A stretch of DNA of 64,000 bases from a virus: positions 134,627-198,626 of the IMG/VR virus record IMGVR_UViG_3300042562_002450; one strand, written 5' to 3'. The notes under the pieces are model-generated. The model was not told the DNA's origin. It was given only the letters and a program-made list of their open reading frames with translations, and ran no database searches. A program made the position numbers and the translations under genes. Every line of letters starts with the position of its first letter. The stretch's first letter is position 1. Positions 4,901 through 45,416 of this stretch are shown piece after piece.

Positions 4901-6367
4901 TTTTTTTAAATATTCATGATAGTCATCAACATTAATTTTTGTTAGTTTTGCTCTAACCTCAGGGCTAAATGCTTGGAAGCCCCCACCTTGTTTTAGCTTT
5001 GCTGCAAAATCTTTTTCAGACAAGCCAGCGGCATCACTCATCCTCCCCATTAAAAAGCGGGAAAGATCTGTCTCTTTTCCTGCATGGATCTGGAGTGATC
5101 GAGTATTATCTACAAGAGTTCCAGCAAGCTGCCTATTTGTTAAAAGTTCTTCTTTTCCTAAGTGACCGAATGACTTACCTTCCTCAGCTAAGTATTCATT
5201 TATTCTTGTTATCCCTTTTTCATCCATAAAAAGAACTTCTTGATTATGATTAAAAGAGTGGTTACCTTTTGAGTCTATATGGGATGTATTAGTTCTTAAT
5301 CCTTGCTTGGAATTACTGGCTTCTTTTGCGAAAGGCTTTTGCTCTATAACATTGCCTTTTAGGTAAATGATACCTTTATTTACATCTGAAGCATTTCCTG
5401 CATTCCTTCCATCTAAGGCTTCATTTTTAAGTATTTGTTTTTTATCAAATTCACTCATTGGTTGAAATGGATTAGCCTTGGCACTATGTCTATGTAAAGC
5501 AATAGCTTCTGGATTCATTTTTGATGTATTCATAAACCCAGTAGCTTTGTCATTATATTGCATTAATTCCATAAACCTATTGTTATACTCGTCTAAGTTC
5601 ATTTCTCCACTTATGAATTTACTATAGTTTTCTCTTATTCCTCTGACATATGCGACATCAGCTCCTACTATTTCTCCAATACCAGTTCCTGTTGAGTTAC
5701 TATTAAATACTCCTCTAATCACAGACTGATTCTGACCAGCAGAACCCATTGTTACCATGCCTTCTTTGTTAACAGTATGAACTTTTATTTTCCCAGCTTT
5801 AGAAGGAATACCAATAGAGGTTATCTGACCAGTGCTATCAAAGTTAACTGATATCGCACTTGATCTTCCTCTCTTTCTTCCTGACGCTAACCCTTCTACT
5901 GAGTTGTCTGCTTGATCTATTGTAACTTGAAGAGCTTTTAGCTCATCCATTAGTGTTGCACTTTGGTTTCTATATCCACCATCTAAGAAATCAGCTATTC
6001 CACCGCCAGCTTTTGAGCCACCTGACATTATGATCTCATCATTAATATTATTTATTGCTGCAAAGTTTCTTCTTTTAGATACAGCTTTTTCAGTATCTGT
6101 ATATGTATATAAATCTGTATTCTTTAATAAAGAATCTATAGGCTTTTGATCCTCGACAGCTTGAGCTACATCTTTGTTCATTAGACTACTTAAGTTCTTA
6201 ATGAATTTATTATTTTCTTTTCTTAGCTTGCCCCTACCTGTCTTGAAGTGACCATGCTTGATAGACTTGTCTAAAGCTACAGCAGCACCACCAAATAAGG
6301 CGGCTCTTCCTGCAATTGAAAAAAAATCATAATTAACATCAAATCTATCTTCTGTCGTTGTGATCAT
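1958..6367 (-). CDS. Putative virion-packaged single-chain two-barrel RNA polymerase
   Basis: GDKIHDIAGEVKATV (beta-type two-Lys motif), IANSSAMKSG, VAVREPV and catalytic-type GDYDGD (3095-3112), then KGFIGIASN. Start at ATG 6367 overlaps the TGA of the upstream gene (ATGA). Confidence 0.75.
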   Translation of the reverse strand: MITTTEDRFDVNYDFFSIAGRAALFGGAAVALDKSIKHGHFKTGRGKLRKENNKFIKNLSSLMNKDVAQAVEDQKPIDSLLKNTDLYTYTDTEKAVSKRRNFAAINNINDEIIMSGGSKAGGGIADFLDGGYRNQSATLMDELKALQVTIDQADNSVEGLASGRKRGRSSAISVNFDSTGQITSIGIPSKAGKIKVHTVNKEGMVTMGSAGQNQSVIRGVFNSNSTGTGIGEIVGADVAYVRGIRENYSKFISGEMNLDEYNNRFMELMQYNDKATGFMNTSKMNPEAIALHRHSAKANPFQPMSEFDKKQILKNEALDGRNAGNASDVNKGIIYLKGNVIEQKPFAKEASNSKQGLRTNTSHIDSKGNHSFNHNQEVLFMDEKGITRINEYLAEEGKSFGHLGKEELLTNRQLAGTLVDNTRSLQIHAGKETDLSRFLMGRMSDAAGLSEKDFAAKLKQGGGFQAFSPEVRAKLTKINVDDYHEYLKKAIEDSKNKRQAYLKVNSNSAGVISGPVGEQIYFADAERLKGQGSLSSEIEKIEKEIITREEQFRNRNLLGISRDGQRKVQLEKEHRGLYLDDIHISENEGLTYGFRKQRLLDQGDKIHDIAGEVKATVKRSIDGLEKYILRYYQELNGNKPLDPEVIRRIKNVEVIANSSAMKSGLDPRNLSSMFHSIRHEARQRITYGASKMSDAENNKWAAIYEAGEDLLSNFERIDDTEKMNYFKRIETIIGGKDEFEEISGLRSNVGFFKNKDVAFGNAAIDTGAGGLGFFSERHIGLYSVMGLDAFAEDVMSRRLDPGANARLNSFEASHRMMKDITNPTKAGIINPEKLQGGDFNSNVFPLDVEGEKLGSNSVLKQRAAYLSNEAIDGVAYVDLEDEILGYRKIGIFTDPSMKGHIGEKIGHGGKYKKYTELDTITKDIISEMGKPKLERNKERLTTLVTNYDSAISQMRDDLRSKIFKGKVTSSMNAQVSSGSNALEEYADSLAAKFKTKNAQPFVVAVNKNKFIEMYGEDAYDAFHKKTGANRFSDTWAVAVREPVEGLSAITVNVVPSDSIEGLEALSDERMAIASGKKNNILRMVYGDYDGDTMSLIAAKTEAAANEVKERAYGNTEDSIELRKAQEIKTRYTLKGREAASVLTNDLAEMRLSTFLAKDLEKGFIGIASNSASPLHQMNAMLNNGDIKKFARVENTLHLFAENIIKGKAQSTEDLISGRAKKVLDSITGDGEFGSKHITEKIKTFRDFSDELFLSLNEKSTVNLGDKIRAGETSEEIEAIFSREGGVSKKDFLYLTSDEAVTDLMEVSNLAGEYKGGMNAADQARELNRILEGSKVKQSEFVKTIMDNTDDVKAMSKGFGGNLAKYALAPAAILGLLGTVFGARSSIEADVEFGDMQSGHNKSNGVGFSPPGAPNIKSPRHMKPSISGNARTGFQINKYAAEHNTSSMRIKDDTRNFDYHDMQDKIGRGY

Positions 6368-40597: not shown

Positions 40598-40611
40598 TTA
40601 TAAAGTATATC
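40598..40611 (-). promoter_or_regulatory. Candidate late promoter GATATACTTTATAA (includes extended -10 TGATATACT)
   Basis: Identical to 35698-35711, with the same 18-nt distance to ATG. Confidence 0.55.
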
Positions 40612-40639
40612 ATAAATAGTATTTGACAGAAGATCAAGT

Positions 40640-41140
40640 ATTTACCTTTTTTAGGGGTATTTAAAATATGTTTATTTTAGTCAAAAACGGTTGCGAATCG
40701 ACTGTTTCTGTTCGAAAGCTGAAAGAAACTGAAGAGAACTGAAAAGAAAAATGAAATTACGAATCAAAAAAATGAAAAAATGAAAAAAAATAGAGTTCTC
40801 CCTAAAGGGAGAATTAAGATATTTTATAAGATATTGGAATAATTAAGGTCTGGGAAAAAAGACCTAGGTAAGCGCTAATTGCAACATGCGACTGCAGTTA
40901 CCCTAAATGGGTAAAGATTTGGCTGAGTATGCTTGCGACTGCATGACTCTCCGCGCCGATGACACCCCCCCCGTAAATGAAAAATAAAAAAACAAAAATT
41001 GGGAATTCGCAATTTGCAAAATAAAAAATAAAAAAGCGTTAAGGGGGTGGGGGTCAAAAAAAACTAAAAAAAATAAAATGGGAATTCGAAAAAGCGAAAA
41101 TGTTTTCGTGTAGTCCTAGATTGATTGATCAAATAGATCT
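40640..41140. other. Divergent non-coding control region; candidate genome terminus or packaging site
   Basis: Transcription direction switches here; phased A-tracts, TGCGACTGCA direct repeat, C8/G5TG5 inverted arms, GGGAATTCG twice. Confidence 0.45.
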
Positions 41141-41193
41141 CACCTCTAACAATTTCGTTCGAGGTACCGGGGTCTATATATAAAGGAATTTTT

Positions 41194-41391
41194 ATGAAAG
41201 AAATTACTGTTGAAGAATGCATTGCTTTAGTGTCTTCAGTCCTTGGTGTAGAGAAAGCAAATAGCTATAGCAACTACATTGCAGAATTGCAAGATGTTAC
41301 TGTTGCTGTTTCGTCGTATGGTCTTATCTGTGTTCTATATACAGATGATGGTGGTAATTCCTCTGACTTTGAGATTCATCTCATTGCTTAG
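41194..41391 (+). CDS. Early hypothetical protein
   Basis: AAAGGAATTTTT-ATG RBS; 65 aa. Confidence 0.75.
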   Translation: MKEITVEECIALVSSVLGVEKANSYSNYIAELQDVTVAVSSYGLICVLYTDDGGNSSDFEIHLIA

Positions 41392-41459
41392 GGTCTTGCT
41401 TGCTTGTTTCTTACCTATGTGCAATTTCGCATATAGGTACACATATCAAAGGAATTTTT

Positions 41460-41642
41460 ATGAAACAGTTTAGATTAGATTCAATTGACCTTTCTCAACC
41501 TGCTAGTCTTCCATCATTTCCTAAAACAAAAAGGAAATACAGACTTCAAGCTTTTGATAAGAAAGCTAACAAAGAAGTGGAGGAGCACTCTGATCCCTTC
41601 CGTCCTAGAGATACAAGCGTACCTTTGAAGAAGGCTGCTTAG
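41460..41642 (+). CDS. Early hypothetical protein (ends KKAA)
   Basis: Same AAAGGAATTTTT-ATG RBS; start reset from the track's 41400. Confidence 0.75.
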   Translation: MKQFRLDSIDLSQPASLPSFPKTKRKYRLQAFDKKANKEVEEHSDPFRPRDTSVPLKKAA

Positions 41643-41709
41643 TATACATACACCTATATACATATCGTATATAGGTACACATCCACTACATATAACAATG
41701 AGGTATCTA

Positions 41710-41913
41710 ATGACTACTATCAATTACTCTATCACTGTATCTGATGCGCTATCTACACCGCATGCCATTGCCTCTATACATAAGACTAATGGGCACTACC
41801 TACACCTAGTACTAGACAATGGTAAGGACATTACTATTGATGAGTACGATATACCAACACATGACCTTATCCCTACTGAAGATATGTACATAGTACGTAT
41901 CGCTAAGGGGTAA
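41710..41913 (+). CDS. Early hypothetical protein, paralog of 44478..44696
   Basis: GAGG RBS; MTTINYSITVSD versus MTTLNYSITVLD. Confidence 0.75.
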   Translation: MTTINYSITVSDALSTPHAIASIHKTNGHYLHLVLDNGKDITIDEYDIPTHDLIPTEDMYIVRIAKG

Positions 41914-41970
41914 TACATACAAACATAAATACATACAATTTCGTATGTATATATAACCTTAGGAGGTTAT

Positions 41971-42147
41971 ATGTCTTATTCTCTAACTGATGCTATGGCA
42001 TCACTGGAAAACACTTACGAGTACGCATTGCGTGCTCAAGAGTGTGACTACAACGATGAGCATGAAGCTTATCACAAAGCTGCTATTAAGGCGGCGCTAG
42101 AGGCTATCCATGCTCAAGCAGCACTGGAGGCTTCTGATAAGGAGTAA
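41971..42147 (+). CDS. Early hypothetical protein (58 aa, not in ORF track)
   Basis: AGGAGG RBS; MSYSLTDAMASLENTYEYALRAQECDYNDEHEAYHKAAIKAALEAIHAQAALEASDKE. Confidence 0.75.
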   Translation: MSYSLTDAMASLENTYEYALRAQECDYNDEHEAYHKAAIKAALEAIHAQAALEASDKE

Positions 42148-42150
42148 TCC

Positions 42151-42214
42151 TTATTACCTTAATGCAGCCTATGCCGGTCACAAGCCCGGATGAAAAATGC
42201 AGAGTGAGGGATAA
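42151..42214 (+). ncRNA. Twister ribozyme, type P1
   Basis: CCU-UAA-UGCA-GCC-UAU-GCCGG-UCACAAGC-CCGG-AUGAAAAA-UGCA-GAGUG-AGG: P1 CCU/AGG, P2 UGCA/UGCA, P4 CCGG/CCGG, T1 pseudoknot CAC/GUG; predicted cleavage U42160/A42161. Confidence 0.9.
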
Positions 42215-42306
42215 AACATAAGCATGGATTTAAGCTTATGCCCAAAATATAAAACCTCTACATGTATAGTTGGACTATATGTGTATACAAGGAAAAGGAG
42301 CACACC

Positions 42307-42492
42307 ATGAAACGTGATGCAACTGTTCATTCCCAAGCTCGCAAGGCTTGGCGTGAACACAAGCGGTTACGTCGTGATAAAGCTAAGTCCTATTCAAGTG
42401 AACGCTTGATAGGCTGGCGAAATCGCGAATGGGTTAAGGCTCAGCGTAAGTACAATGAAGTACTTGCCTGGTCTGACAACCAAGCCGCGTAG
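42307..42492 (+). CDS. Early basic hypothetical protein (ends QAA)
   Basis: AAGGAG RBS before ATG 42307. Confidence 0.75.
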   Translation: MKRDATVHSQARKAWREHKRLRRDKAKSYSSERLIGWRNREWVKAQRKYNEVLAWSDNQAA

Positions 42493-42660
42493 TACCTAAC
42501 GGTACTGCAACATATCCTGAAACGATAGGGATATGAAATATACCTCCCACTGTAATGGTGGGATGTATATAAAACTTATATAGGTATTACTTATATTGGT
42601 TCTATATACATTGTGTATAAACTACATATTTTATGTAGTTATTTTAGATAAAGGAATTTT

Positions 42661-42912
42661 GTGAAAATAACAATTAACATGTTTTGTGATCGTCTTCTTG
42701 GAGACAACAAAATGGAAGTGCTAATGGTAGCAATTCATGCACGTAAGCTTGATCCCTCTATTAGATTAGAGACAGTTCAGGCTATATATGATGTCAAGTT
42801 TACACTTGATTCATGCATCATGTTTTCTACTGGTAGTGAAGAAGATAAGCAGATTATCGCTAGATTAACTAGTGAGTATGAGTCTCTACTATCACAAGGC
42901 ATGATTCTTTAG
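42661..42912 (+). CDS. Early hypothetical protein
   Basis: AAAGGAATTTT-GTG RBS. Confidence 0.75.
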   Translation: MKITINMFCDRLLGDNKMEVLMVAIHARKLDPSIRLETVQAIYDVKFTLDSCIMFSTGSEEDKQIIARLTSEYESLLSQGMIL

Positions 42913-42925
42913 TAGTAAACGATTA

Positions 42926-42989
42926 AGGCCGAAACGCAGTTACTAAGTAACGTAAGTCGTATATGTGTAATGCACATACTGATGAGGCT
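42926..42989 (+). ncRNA. Hammerhead ribozyme, type II (copy 1)
   Basis: GCC-GAAAC-stem III-GUA(42961)-UAUGUG/CACAUA stem I-CUGAUGA-GGC. Confidence 0.88.
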
Positions 42990-43021
42990 GTATCTAATAA
43001 TCAAATATCCTAGGAGGATAT

Positions 43022-43183
43022 ATGAATGACATAGATAAATGTTTTGAATTGATGGAGGCTTACATTCGAGCAGATGAACGTAATCATAATGGCGAATATT
43101 ATGAGGTATCTCTTAGTGATAAGGAAATCGCTATTGCTGCTGATCTTGATCTCGCTAACTGGATCGAAGACCTAGTTGCTTAA
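43022..43183 (+). CDS. Early acidic hypothetical protein (53 aa, not in ORF track)
   Basis: AGGAGG RBS; MNDIDKCFELMEAYIRADERNHNGEYYEVSLSDKEIAIAADLDLANWIEDLVA. Confidence 0.75.
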   Translation: MNDIDKCFELMEAYIRADERNHNGEYYEVSLSDKEIAIAADLDLANWIEDLVA

Positions 43184-43184
43184 A

Positions 43185-43247
43185 AGCCGAAACGTCTTAT
43201 CTACTGATAGATAAGAGTCTATGTGTAATGCACATACTGATGAGGCT
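43185..43247 (+). ncRNA. Hammerhead ribozyme, type II (copy 2)
   Basis: AGCC-GAAAC-G-UCUUAUCUA/UAGAUAAGA stem III-GUC(43219)-UAUGUG/CACAUA-CUGAUGA-GGCU. Confidence 0.92.
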
Positions 43248-43262
43248 AATCTTATTAGGTAA

Positions 43263-43484
43263 TTGGAGGTTCTTTTGAAAAAGCACACTTCTCCTTCTGA
43301 TCTCTATGAGATCAAAATGTCTGCTCTGCACGGGGCAGCCATGGACTTGATTGAGTTGGAGTTAAATCAGCCCATTTACTGGGTTGATTCTGCTCTTGCT
43401 TCCCTTGCTCTTGACCTTGCCACTGAGGAGTTAGCTAATGCTGAACTTCTTTTGGATATCTGGTTGAGTACAACAGAAAACTAA
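43263..43484 (+). CDS. Early acidic hypothetical protein
   Basis: ORF filling the space between hammerheads 2 and 3; start may be TTG 43275 after GGAGG. Confidence 0.65.
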   Translation: MEVLLKKHTSPSDLYEIKMSALHGAAMDLIELELNQPIYWVDSALASLALDLATEELANAELLLDIWLSTTEN

Positions 43485-43485
43485 A

Positions 43486-43551
43486 AGCCGAAACGCTTTC
43501 ACTTAACAGTGATGTAAGCCGTCTATGTGTATTACACATACTGATGAGGCT
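43486..43551 (+). ncRNA. Hammerhead ribozyme, type II (copy 3)
   Basis: AGCC-GAAAC-bulged stem III (UCACU/AGUGA)-GUC(43523)-UAUGUG/CACAUA-CUGAUGA-GGCU. Confidence 0.92.
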
Positions 43552-43608
43552 GTTCTTAATTAATCCCTAAACATTCACTTATACATATGAACTAACTAAG
43601 GAGTCTTT

Positions 43609-43899
43609 ATGTTAGTAAACATTCGTCGTATATCGAATCATGCAACTGAACGTCTTGTAGAGACATATAGAGTTGCCCCTAAGATTCAAAAGATTATTGC
43701 TTTAGTTGTTTCACAAGCAGCTAAAAATGTAATCGAGTATGGCCGTGATAATGCTGTATTCGTTATTAACCCTAATGAAGGGGCTTATGTGGTTAAAGGT
43801 GACACTGTTGTTACTTTTATTCATAAGTCTCGTATTGGTGAGTTCGGTAACTGCCAACGTGCTTATGATCATTATAAATCTACTGGTAAAGCAGCTTAA
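43609..43899 (+). CDS. Early protein with possible BECR-type RNase fold (DUF4258-like); ends KAA
   Basis: ISNHATERL near the N-terminus and YVVKGDTVVTFI near the C-terminus. Confidence 0.4.
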   Translation: MLVNIRRISNHATERLVETYRVAPKIQKIIALVVSQAAKNVIEYGRDNAVFVINPNEGAYVVKGDTVVTFIHKSRIGEFGNCQRAYDHYKSTGKAA

Positions 43900-43914
43900 A
43901 CAAAAGGAGTACCT

Positions 43915-44238
43915 ATGAATACAAAGACACTTTTTCGTATGCACAGAAGAAATCAATTAGAGAAAGGTATCTGGAAAGATGCTAATCCCTTACTGGAAAT
44001 GGAACTATCTTCCCAATATGGTGTTGGTGGAGCAGAAGGCTTAGAGGAAGATGACTATTTCGCTATGCCTTCTATGGATTCTTTCCTATCAAGTGATTTG
44101 GAAATTCTTAAGAAATACAATTATGTAATTTCTAAAATTGAAGTTGTTGCTTGGGGTGAAGTATTGAATCACGACGGAAGTGTTATTGAGTGTGTATTTA
44201 AAATTTCGGATGTCGTAAAGGCTGAAGAATTATATTAA
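43915..44238 (+). CDS. Early hypothetical protein
   Basis: AAGGAG RBS. Confidence 0.75.
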   Translation: MNTKTLFRMHRRNQLEKGIWKDANPLLEMELSSQYGVGGAEGLEEDDYFAMPSMDSFLSSDLEILKKYNYVISKIEVVAWGEVLNHDGSVIECVFKISDVVKAEELY

Positions 44239-44254
44239 TCAACAAGGAGTTACT

Positions 44255-44473
44255 ATGAAAGCGATTCTATCTAAAGAGATTAAAGATCTAGGTGTCACTG
44301 AGTCTGATGTTAAGCATATGATGAAAGCATGTAATGTTGTTCGTCATACTGACTATGAACCTAGTCTTGGTGATCTTAGGGATCTATTGGCTAATGCTTA
44401 TGAAGAAGAAAAGAAACGTAAACGTATTGTTCTGTCTTGGGCTGACTTATTAACTAGAATTAACAAAGGGTAA
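44255..44473 (+). CDS. Early hypothetical protein
   Basis: AAGGAG RBS. Confidence 0.75.
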   Translation: MKAILSKEIKDLGVTESDVKHMMKACNVVRHTDYEPSLGDLRDLLANAYEEEKKRKRIVLSWADLLTRINKG

Positions 44474-44477
44474 TCAA

Positions 44478-44696
44478 ATGACAACATTAAACTACAGCAT
44501 CACTGTCCTCGATTCTTGTCATCATCAAGTAAAAATCGTAGCAGTTAAAAGAAAGAAAGGTTGTGAGACTGAATACACATTAGAGAATGGATTATTTCTA
44601 TGTGTATCTGATTCATACATAACCAGTGGTGAAGAATTAATCCCAGTATCTGTTGGTAATAATGAACTGTATCTACATGTATCTAAGGTTGCTTAG
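44478..44696 (+). CDS. Early hypothetical protein, paralog of 41710..41913
   Basis: Shared N-terminus. Confidence 0.75.
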   Translation: MTTLNYSITVLDSCHHQVKIVAVKRKKGCETEYTLENGLFLCVSDSYITSGEELIPVSVGNNELYLHVSKVA

Positions 44697-44752
44697 TATC
44701 TCACTATAGAGCTTAACAATATCGTTAGGTTCTACAAATTAAGGAGTATCCA

Positions 44753-44962
44753 ATGGCCTATTTCTCTAATGATTTATCTGTTCGTAAACTTCAGTATCAA
44801 GAGTTACTTATCAAAGAAGGAGACTATACCTTTAATGAAGTAAAGGATATGTCCCTCAGAGATTTGCGCGCTGCTGTTGATGAGGTTCTATGTGTATCTA
44901 TCACAGAGCTAGTTGTTACTGCTGCTGGTGGTGTCTCTAGACGTACTAGAAAGATTGCTTAA
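44753..44962 (+). CDS. Early hypothetical protein
   Basis: AAGGAG RBS. Confidence 0.75.
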   Translation: MAYFSNDLSVRKLQYQELLIKEGDYTFNEVKDMSLRDLRAAVDEVLCVSITELVVTAAGGVSRRTRKIA

Positions 44963-45018
44963 TTAATCACTAAAGGGCCTAGTAATATAGCTAGGCTCTA
45001 TAAAATAAAGGAGTCTCT

Positions 45019-45114
45019 ATGAGAATACTAACTATGAAAATTACCAAATTTAAAGATCAGACTTGGTATGACTTTTATTACAGAGGCAAGCACTTGCTTT
45101 GGATATCTCTATAG
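45019..45114 (+). CDS. Early small protein (31 aa, not in ORF track)
   Basis: AAGGAG RBS after a stem-loop. Confidence 0.5.
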   Translation: MRILTMKITKFKDQTWYDFYYRGKHLLWISL

Positions 45115-45161
45115 ACTAACCATACTTGAGGCTAAATGTTTGAAACAACAAAGGAGTATCT

Positions 45162-45338
45162 ATGAAAGCATTACTTGGTATCTTACTTATGACTTATTTC
45201 TTTGTACTAATGGCTGAAGCAGCTCTTACCGTTGATAAGTTTGGAACACTTGCCGATGTTGCCTCTAAGAATCAAAGAGCTATTAATAAATTACATGGTA
45301 GAAGTCCTGCTGTTGCTTATAACAAGGGAGATCTATGA
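45162..45338 (+). CDS. Small protein with signal peptide/TM helix (58 aa, not in ORF track)
   Basis: AAGGAG RBS; MKALLGILLMTYFFVLMAEAA... Confidence 0.6.
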   Translation: MKALLGILLMTYFFVLMAEAALTVDKFGTLADVASKNQRAINKLHGRSPAVAYNKGDL

Positions 45339-45416
45339 GATTAGTTGTATTGTTGATTGTTGTTCGTATCGCCTTTTCTGTTGTCACTTCACTATAAACA
45401 ATTCAAAGGAGTATCT

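Follow-up and report, generated by a model that had tools for sequence, protein, structure and literature searches.

Type-P1 twister ribozymes (RF03160) were described by Roth et al. 2014 as reviewed in PMC5408937, and their structural references are the O. sativa Osa-1-4 and env22 ribozymes. According to that review, stems P1, P2, and P4 are essential and P0, P3, and P5 are optional, the T1 pseudoknot consists of three Watson-Crick pairs and an A-A pair, the T2 pseudoknot is defined alongside it, and the cut in J1-2 separates a less conserved U from an A that is highly conserved (PMC5408937). Twisters and hammerheads occur at most a few kilobases apart in the vicinity of phage genes (PMC5408937, PMC6765202), and clustering of these two classes is a layout already known from phages. 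Hammerheads flank single genes in prophages, and tandem hammerheads placed in this way cleave native transcripts of ~2 kb in vitro (PMC3088659). RNA processing has long been proposed for clustered phage ribozymes but is in general still unproven (PMC3088659, PMC6765202), and the literature has yet to settle what twisters do for bacteria and phages (PMC6765202).

The stretch of DNA analyzed here (the window) makes up the final 64 kb of an IMG/VR virus record of 198,626 bp with a G+C content of ~36%. A minus-strand structural module that extends up to 40637 encodes capsid, portal-like, and T4-type large terminase domains, and the large terminase shares only ~30% identity with its counterparts in Moorella phage MTATph1, Bacillus phage 0305phi8-36, and other large myoviruses of this kind. 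DNA of this phage is present in lake/freshwater metagenome runs from 19 studies, and a search of sequencing runs listed no RNA run that contains it; the source is an uncultured ~200-kb freshwater tailed phage that is widespread in lakes. The structural module is followed by a 550-nt noncoding stretch and then by a run of small plus-strand open reading frames (ORFs). The divergent region between the structural and early modules (40640 to 41190) contains A-rich repeats and two GGGAATTCG motifs, and a bidirectional terminator-like hairpin is found at 40794 to 40815, inside the 550-nt noncoding region.

The twister is located in a 159-nt spacer between two of the early ORFs, which encode proteins of 58 and 61 amino acids (aa), and it is co-oriented with both. 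Identical 58-aa and 61-aa proteins were found on 15 contigs of other assemblies and on 17 contigs, respectively; a search of IMG/VR for relatives of the two flanking proteins found none, and a megablast search of 41000 to 44000 against cultured phages gave no match. No terminator-like sites were detected on the plus strand between 41190 and 45400, and no antisense host-type promoter faces the twister at this locus. Sigma-70-like promoter sites are depleted in 40600 to 45400 (2, versus 18.0 ± 4.8 in shuffles), which is consistent with transcription by a non-host polymerase. The next gene starts 97 nt past the twister, behind two hairpins like those preceding other early genes, and because of these hairpins the 61-aa gene may be served by a separate promoter, in which case processing would be less needed. 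Ribozyme-free early slots each hold an A+T-rich hairpin of 8 to 12 pairs (41418 to 41443, 41652 to 41676, 41925 to 41954, 42259 to 42285, and 42620 to 42640). These hairpins (e.g., ACCTATATAC...GTATATAGGT) are followed by TACACAT-like bases, lie 15 to 40 nt upstream of the ribosome-binding site, and have arms resembling hammerhead stem I (TATGTG/CACATA); they may act as promoters for a phage polymerase or as sites for RNase. Perfect hairpins of 9 to 11 bp at 41951 to 41972 and 43001 to 43025 (ATATAACCT-TAGG-AGGTTATAT and TCAAATATCCT-AGG-AGGATATATGA) take in both the start codon and the ribosome-binding site of the genes for the 58-aa and 53-aa proteins, and they may serve in translational control.

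The twister-P1 covariance model aligns with the element over its full length (model positions 1 to 68 of 68) at 52.3 bits in cmscan, with an E value of 7.6e-11 in a 601-nt search and of 8.1e-9 when both strands of the 64-kb window were searched with 4,227 families, and this match is the only one for twister-P1 in the whole 198.6-kb phage record. A first-pass annotation of this DNA had named the element a twister-P1 ribozyme, and a full-length match far stronger than chance would give agrees with this, though its score is 15 bits below the RF03160 gathering score of 67.2. The sequence strings on which that annotation relied are in place (GCCGG-UCACAAGC-CCGG at 42173 to 42189, GAGUG at 42202 to 42206, and UAA at 42160 to 42162), and the covariance-model alignment puts the cleavage site between U42160 and A42161, where the annotation had predicted it. 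A default Rfam scan of the window at gathering scores listed nothing because the element scores below the cutoff, and the deficit in score arises because the P3 stem of the model is replaced by a CUAU linker. All 14 of the other type-P1 twisters that were scored, from nine viral or metagenome loci (L011, L025, L043, L081, L141, L155, L224, L225, and L227), reach 41 to 59 bits and thus also fall below 67.2, which indicates that the threshold is strict and not that the element is doubtful. Within a further 137 kb, one type-P1 copy scored above the gathering score (L195, 70.5 bits), and type-P5 twister copies, for which the cutoff is 37.6, routinely passed. The window element is a typical minimal phage twister, and we are highly confident that it is a P3-less type-P1 twister with a genuine twister fold. 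It is one more well-supported member of a very large family, and its intrinsic news value is small.

Relatives were collected from IMG/VR with a 17-nt P4/L4 motif in two scans, one in which the middle T1 base was A and one in which it was any other base, each with >115 contigs, and a script paired the L4 base with the N of the GAGNG that adjoins a 4-mer complementary to P2. From the matches listed, 26 distinct P3-less phage and metagenome twisters, including the window element, were aligned with MAFFT (alignment A2). At the sequence level, the element has each of the features given in the review (PMC5408937), namely, the essential stems, T1, T2, and the position of the cut between U and A. It carries the consensus base at 26 of the 26 invariant columns of A2, with part of this invariance imposed by the search pattern for the L4/P4 17-mer; the AA, GC, and GAG.G columns are not all imposed by it. 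The predicted cut lies 13 nt past the stop codon of the 58-aa gene, and of the 89 phage copies among the matches listed, 80 have U and 9 have C just before the cut. The commonest P2 among the matches listed is the UGCA found here (67 of 89 distinct phage type-P1 copies), and a linker of 2 to 4 nt takes the place of P3 in 29 of the same 89; the CUAU linker itself (CTAT in DNA) recurs in L141 and L155. T2 is present as the GC/GC pairs that are invariant in A2, which makes it uninformative for covariation. In the GAGUG strand, the first three bases and the last G are invariant in A2. G42202 is probably the active-site guanine, by analogy with the O. sativa numbering (G45/A7 in PMC5408937), and the middle T1 base cannot be this invariant guanine because it varies freely.

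P1 consists of three Watson-Crick pairs and a possible extension of five pairs, and A and G form a mismatch at the outermost P1 position of the model. The wider span of 42151 to 42214 in the first-pass annotation corresponds to this lengthened P1: in the MFE fold, 42151 to 42155 would pair with 42210 to 42214 through five A-U/G-U pairs, with A42156 bulged. The strains are identical in this extension, which therefore holds no covariation information, and if the A-U-rich extension does not form, P1 has no more than the three Watson-Crick pairs next to the active site. The features are listed in Table 1.

Table 1. Positions in the window of the twister, its parts, the neighboring hammerheads, and the flanking early ORFs
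Feature	Position	Strand	Basis or details
Type-P1 twister core, without P3	42156..42210	+	cmscan, RF03160
Outer limits of possible extended P1	42151..42214	+	MFE fold
P1 5' strand	42157..42159	+	C42157-G42209, C42158-G42208, U42159-A42207; cmscan structure line
Predicted scissile bond U42160 / A42161	42160..42161	+	RF03160 model positions 5 and 6 (U, A)
P2 5' strand UGCA	42163..42166	+	Pairs with 42198-42201; P2 = UGCA/UGCA; cmscan
T2 pseudoknot, 5' half	42167..42168	+	G42167-C42185, C42168-G42184
CUAU linker replacing optional P3 stem	42169..42172	+	Model P3 positions deleted
P4 stem (42174-42177/42186-42189) and loop L4	42174..42189	+	cmscan, alignment A2; 4 G-C pairs
T1 pseudoknot, L4 side CAC	42179..42181	+	C42179-G42206, A42180-U42205, C42181-G42204
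L1 3' strand GAGUG	42202..42206	+	42204-42206 = T1 3' half; A42203 partners A42182
Type II hammerhead a	42927..42989	+	By eye and descriptor script; predicted cut A42961 / U42962
Type II hammerhead b	43185..43247	+	By eye and descriptor script; predicted cut C43219 / U43220
Type II hammerhead c	43486..43551	+	By eye and descriptor script; predicted cut C43523 / U43524
Upstream 58-aa early ORF	41971..42147	+	Stop 42145-42147, 4 nt before extended P1
Downstream 61-aa early ORF	42307..42492	+	GGAG ribosome-binding site

The pairing of the T1 pseudoknot is maintained across the family. Among the matches listed, the base in L4 and the N of GAGNG were A-U in 97 of 98, C-G in 62 of 62, G-C in 14 of 14, and U-A in 1 of 1 cases. 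After deduplication, 89 distinct type-P1 copies among the matches listed had a middle T1 position of A-U (42), C-G (40), G-C (5), or U-A (1), with one mismatch, so that this position pairs in 88 of 89. In A2, which is drawn from the matches listed, the middle pair is always Watson-Crick (AU 16, CG 5, GC 4, and UA 1), and with the full pseudoknotted structure 96.2% of the cells pair, compared with 81.5% in shuffles (0 of 500 shuffles reached the observed value); only 15 to 40% of the cells pair when the partners are slid. P1 and P2 covary among the relatives in A2, and across the 89 copies among the matches listed 280 of 356 P1 cells are paired, versus 177 ± 6.7 in shuffles. Since the search pattern fixed the P4/L4 bases and the parser demanded P2 complementarity, only P1 and the middle T1 pair are independent tests of the structure, and both pass. 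The claim that a change from CCC/GGG to CAC/GUG retains the pseudoknot is therefore well founded (pairing in 26 of 26 A2 copies and in 88 of 89 type-P1 copies among the matches listed). This is genuine covariation, but in the sampled phage twisters CAC/GUG occurs about as often as CCC/GGG; it is a routine variant, one of two common states, and no notable departure from the rice twister.

Compared with the RF03160 family, the element shares P1-P2-P4, T1 and T2, the U/AA cleavage loop, the L4 motif, and the GAGNG strand, and the family allows P3 to be absent. It differs in having CAC/GUG at T1 where the model consensus is CCC/GGG, a 4-nt CUAU linker, and a J4-2 junction of 8 nt (AUGAAAAA) instead of the usual 5 nt, as well as in scoring 15 bits under the cutoff. 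The phage twisters of IMG/VR (L141, L155, L011, and L043 and the arrays L081, L025, and L009) have the same minimal form and score 41 to 59 bits; like the element, they are intergenic, on the coding strand, and between small genes, and CAC/GUG is frequent among them. However, most of them are found in contigs with 45 to 65% G+C, often directly before a ribosome-binding site, whereas the window element belongs to a genome of ~36% G+C and follows a stop codon, with the next start 97 nt away. Its neighbors are hammerheads, whereas the IMG/VR arrays consist of more twisters. For the 98 phage type-P1 copies among the matches listed, the median gap was 24 nt after the upstream same-strand ORF and 31.5 nt before the next. 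Twisters placed "inside" same-strand ORFs (41 of the 98 listed) were discarded as meaningless, as spurious long ORFs abound in high-G+C contigs.

Arrays at gene spacing were common, with 7 twisters in 5.5 kb in L009 and 3 each in L081 and L025. Groups of 3 to 7 twisters spaced 300 to 600 nt apart, one per small gene, occur at L009:2681-5405, L081:12734-13420, L025:12152-12820, and L037:1224-2616. One viral contig carries a twister-P1 and a twister-sister 2.3 kb apart (L195:2812-2874 and 5163-5234), and a RAGATH-28 RNA is found in another twister-bearing contig (L150:1645-1724). At L155:4484-4854, a distance of 39 nt separates a P3-less twister from a tRNA gene, and another tRNA follows after a further 110 nt; this twister could have a role in processing tRNA ends.

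Three candidate type II hammerheads (a, b, and c) fill the next three intergenic slots downstream of the twister, beginning 14, 1, and 1 nt past the preceding stop codons, which agrees with the first-pass annotation that a different ribozyme class sits in the same kind of slot. All three have the core CUGAUGA ... GAAA ... [quoted passage not shown] H / stem I ... CUGAUGA, and the open stem II is GGCC/GGCU. RF02276 gave no match to the three hammerheads at an E value of ≤10, and the only match to an Rfam hammerhead model was a partial one to Hammerhead_3 at 15.7 bits; the neighbors would be expected to work like type II hammerheads, and we do not claim the Rfam family as modeled. Descriptor and motif scans of the 198.6-kb record found no further hammerheads, and one other descriptor match was dismissed as implausible and located inside a coding sequence. 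The loop of stem I (UAAU in b and AUUA in c) may pair with AUUA/UAAU just 3' of stem II, and such pairing would form the pseudoknot that is typical of type II hammerheads. In 2.1 Mb of twister-bearing viral loci, a crude descriptor found 2 type II-like hammerheads versus 1 in shuffles, and CUGANGA-hairpin-GAAA occurred 14 times versus 4 in shuffles, an enrichment too weak to use.

As in the prophage hammerhead clusters of Perreault et al. 2011 (PMC3088659), which include type II and for which processing of long phage RNAs is the proposed role, self-cleaving ribozymes are found here at consecutive gene junctions. Unlike those clusters, this locus has two ribozyme classes in one operon and belongs to a large lytic-type lake phage. 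It is reasonable to read two classes in one type of slot as implying selection for cleavage, which restates a published observation.

DNA contigs from four lake runs were compared with positions 41000 to 44000 of the window at a likeness of at least 80%. The JGI, ENA, and Logan assemblies include near-identical contigs, and the twister of these strain contigs matches that of the window without a difference; in near strains its sole polymorphism is T42170A, in the unpaired linker. A more distant lake contig of 1,998 nt (record 16 of run X21) aligns with the window only at 42160 to 42206, with 0 differences, and at the 5' half of hammerhead c, the two being separated by 663 unrelated letters. 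Alignment joints were found at ribozyme borders (41960 to 42156, 42206 to 43484, 42209 to 43110, and 43247 to 43939), several of them at 42156 and at 42206 to 42209. Strain contig L231 carries hammerhead b as a 73-nt island of 100% identity, and the ORFs on either side of it have no relation to those of the window. Positions 1 to 1270 of this contig correspond to window positions 42190 to 43777 without 42611 to 43004 (an 83-aa gene and hammerhead a) and have other genes between the hammerheads; the resulting joint from 42610 to 43005, which also occurs in run X14, is at hairpins and not at a ribozyme. Substitutions in the hammerheads are compensatory: in the L231 variant of hammerhead b, stem I reads UACAUG/CAUGUA in place of UAUGUG/CACAUA and stem III reads UCUUACUU/AAGUAAGA in place of UCUUAUCUA/UAGAUAAGA, and hammerhead c in X14 and X21 contigs has a different yet complementary stem I after 43522 (CAUACG/CGUAUG). 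The ribozymes are conserved islands in a mosaic early region.

An exact 47-nt twister pattern had no match in IMG/VR, and a looser P3-less pattern retrieved only 4 loci from metagenome contigs, none related to the phage studied here. One 1.4-kb metagenome contig (L225:177-231) shares 46 of 47 twister core bases with the window element and has a different, compensated P1 (CGCC/GGCG). This contig has long A/T runs, with ~50-nt tandem repeats as flanks, and looks non-phage, possibly eukaryotic.

We consider an early-operon twister that cuts a long RNA into gene-sized messages to be the best explanation for this locus, with a probability of roughly 0.8. The 55- to 64-nt element would fold during early polycistronic transcription, with P1-P2-P4 locked by T1 and T2, and self-cleavage between U42160 and A42161 would follow. 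This would leave a 2',3'-cyclic phosphate at the end of the upstream piece, and the 5'-OH at the start of the downstream piece would lie inside the folded body of the twister. With the three hammerheads cutting as well, the operon RNA would be divided into messages of one or two genes that have nonstandard ends, and the stability and translation of the separate messages would be uncoupled. We infer that the twister cleaves, that it belongs to a long transcript, and that its cleavage has this effect. We consider active cleavage in vivo to be probable, and we hold with less assurance that processing of mRNA is its purpose, which we regard as somewhat more likely than not. As the stop codon of the 58-aa gene ends at 42147, a terminating ribosome would cover the P1 5' strand, and folding in vivo may thus compete with translation.

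The mosaic structure of the early region invites another reading, namely, that the ribozymes, as short and highly conserved blocks among small early genes that change fast, act mainly as patches of DNA homology at which early-gene cassettes are exchanged or lost through recombination, whether among related phages or among the three hammerhead copies, with RNA cleavage being secondary or hitchhiking. We regard this as unlikely. Homology between lake contigs does begin and end at ribozyme borders, and in L231 hammerhead b persists as an identical island among unrelated ORFs while one gene and hammerhead a are missing; however, purifying selection on RNA function yields conserved islands too, so that the pattern does not discriminate, and the compensatory stem substitutions point to selection for RNA structure and lower the DNA homology. 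Moreover, the deletion joint from 42610 to 43005 is at hairpins, and joints seen at 80% likeness in metagenome contigs may stem from other phages. Promoter/stem-loop cassettes in T4-type phages reportedly play a comparable role in recombination (Arbiol et al. 2010). A reading in which the same 50- to 65-nt blocks both cut the transcript and serve as swap junctions, so that the ribozymes delimit exchangeable early-gene cassettes, is speculative, and we give it a small chance. The idea that the match is a decayed or fortuitous twister-like sequence without activity could draw on its score below the gathering cutoff and on the many computationally predicted ribozymes that fail assays (PMC8782182), but we hold it to be very unlikely given the E value of 8e-9, the presence of all A2 invariant positions, the compensated T1 change, and an element that is identical across many lake samples and conserved where its flanks are not.

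Two further alternatives accept cleavage and differ in what becomes of it. Cleavage might be conditional, with the folding of the twister governed by ribosomes passing along the 58-aa gene, or by some factor or ionic condition, so that the element would form a translation-coupled switch on downstream expression or on decay of the upstream mRNA. The P1 5' strand with its extension (42151 to 42159) is within the footprint of a ribosome at the stop codon at 42145 to 42147, regulated cleavage has been proposed for phage hammerheads (PMC3088659), and engineered twisters in 3' untranslated regions reduce expression according to work cited in PMC6765202. This alternative is nevertheless quite unlikely, as the minimal twister has no ligand-binding or sensor domain and the distance to the stop codon varies widely among the phage copies listed. 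P1 is also reportedly dispensable for twister activity, which counts against such a switch. Alternatively, the 5'-OH and 2',3'-cyclic phosphate ends might be joined, so that RNAs between ribozymes are ligated into circular or spliced messages, and a nicked hammerhead could be restored by way of stem II from pieces that have a near-identical type II hammerhead at each end. The bracketing of single genes by three near-identical hammerheads would suit this idea, which was raised in PMC3088659, but such products were sought in that study and none were found, and the twister end is without a partner half. A search for RtcB (PF01139) and Rnl2-type RNA ligase (PF09414) genes detected none in the 198.6-kb record, which is ~89% complete, although a host enzyme could serve; we judge ligation to be highly improbable.

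Cutting of the early transcript by the twister and hammerheads thus stands as the preferred reading, and the locus bears on several wider points. The RF03160 gathering score misses this element and most of the minimal phage type-P1 twisters that were scored, and default annotation therefore underreports such twisters. Natural strain mosaics around the ribozymes offer a population-genetic handle on RNA function versus DNA recombination. If the ribozymes do delimit exchangeable cassettes, the ribozyme class, twister or hammerhead, would be interchangeable and only the cut would matter, and the products would be single-gene messages with unusual, nuclease-resistant ends. A link to transcription by a phage polymerase, to which the promoters and terminators of the host may be of no account, would, if true, be new. 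The locus is a compact natural case in which two ribozyme classes seemingly do the same job at four consecutive gene junctions, and it is useful material for the question of what self-cleaving ribozymes do in bacteria and phages.
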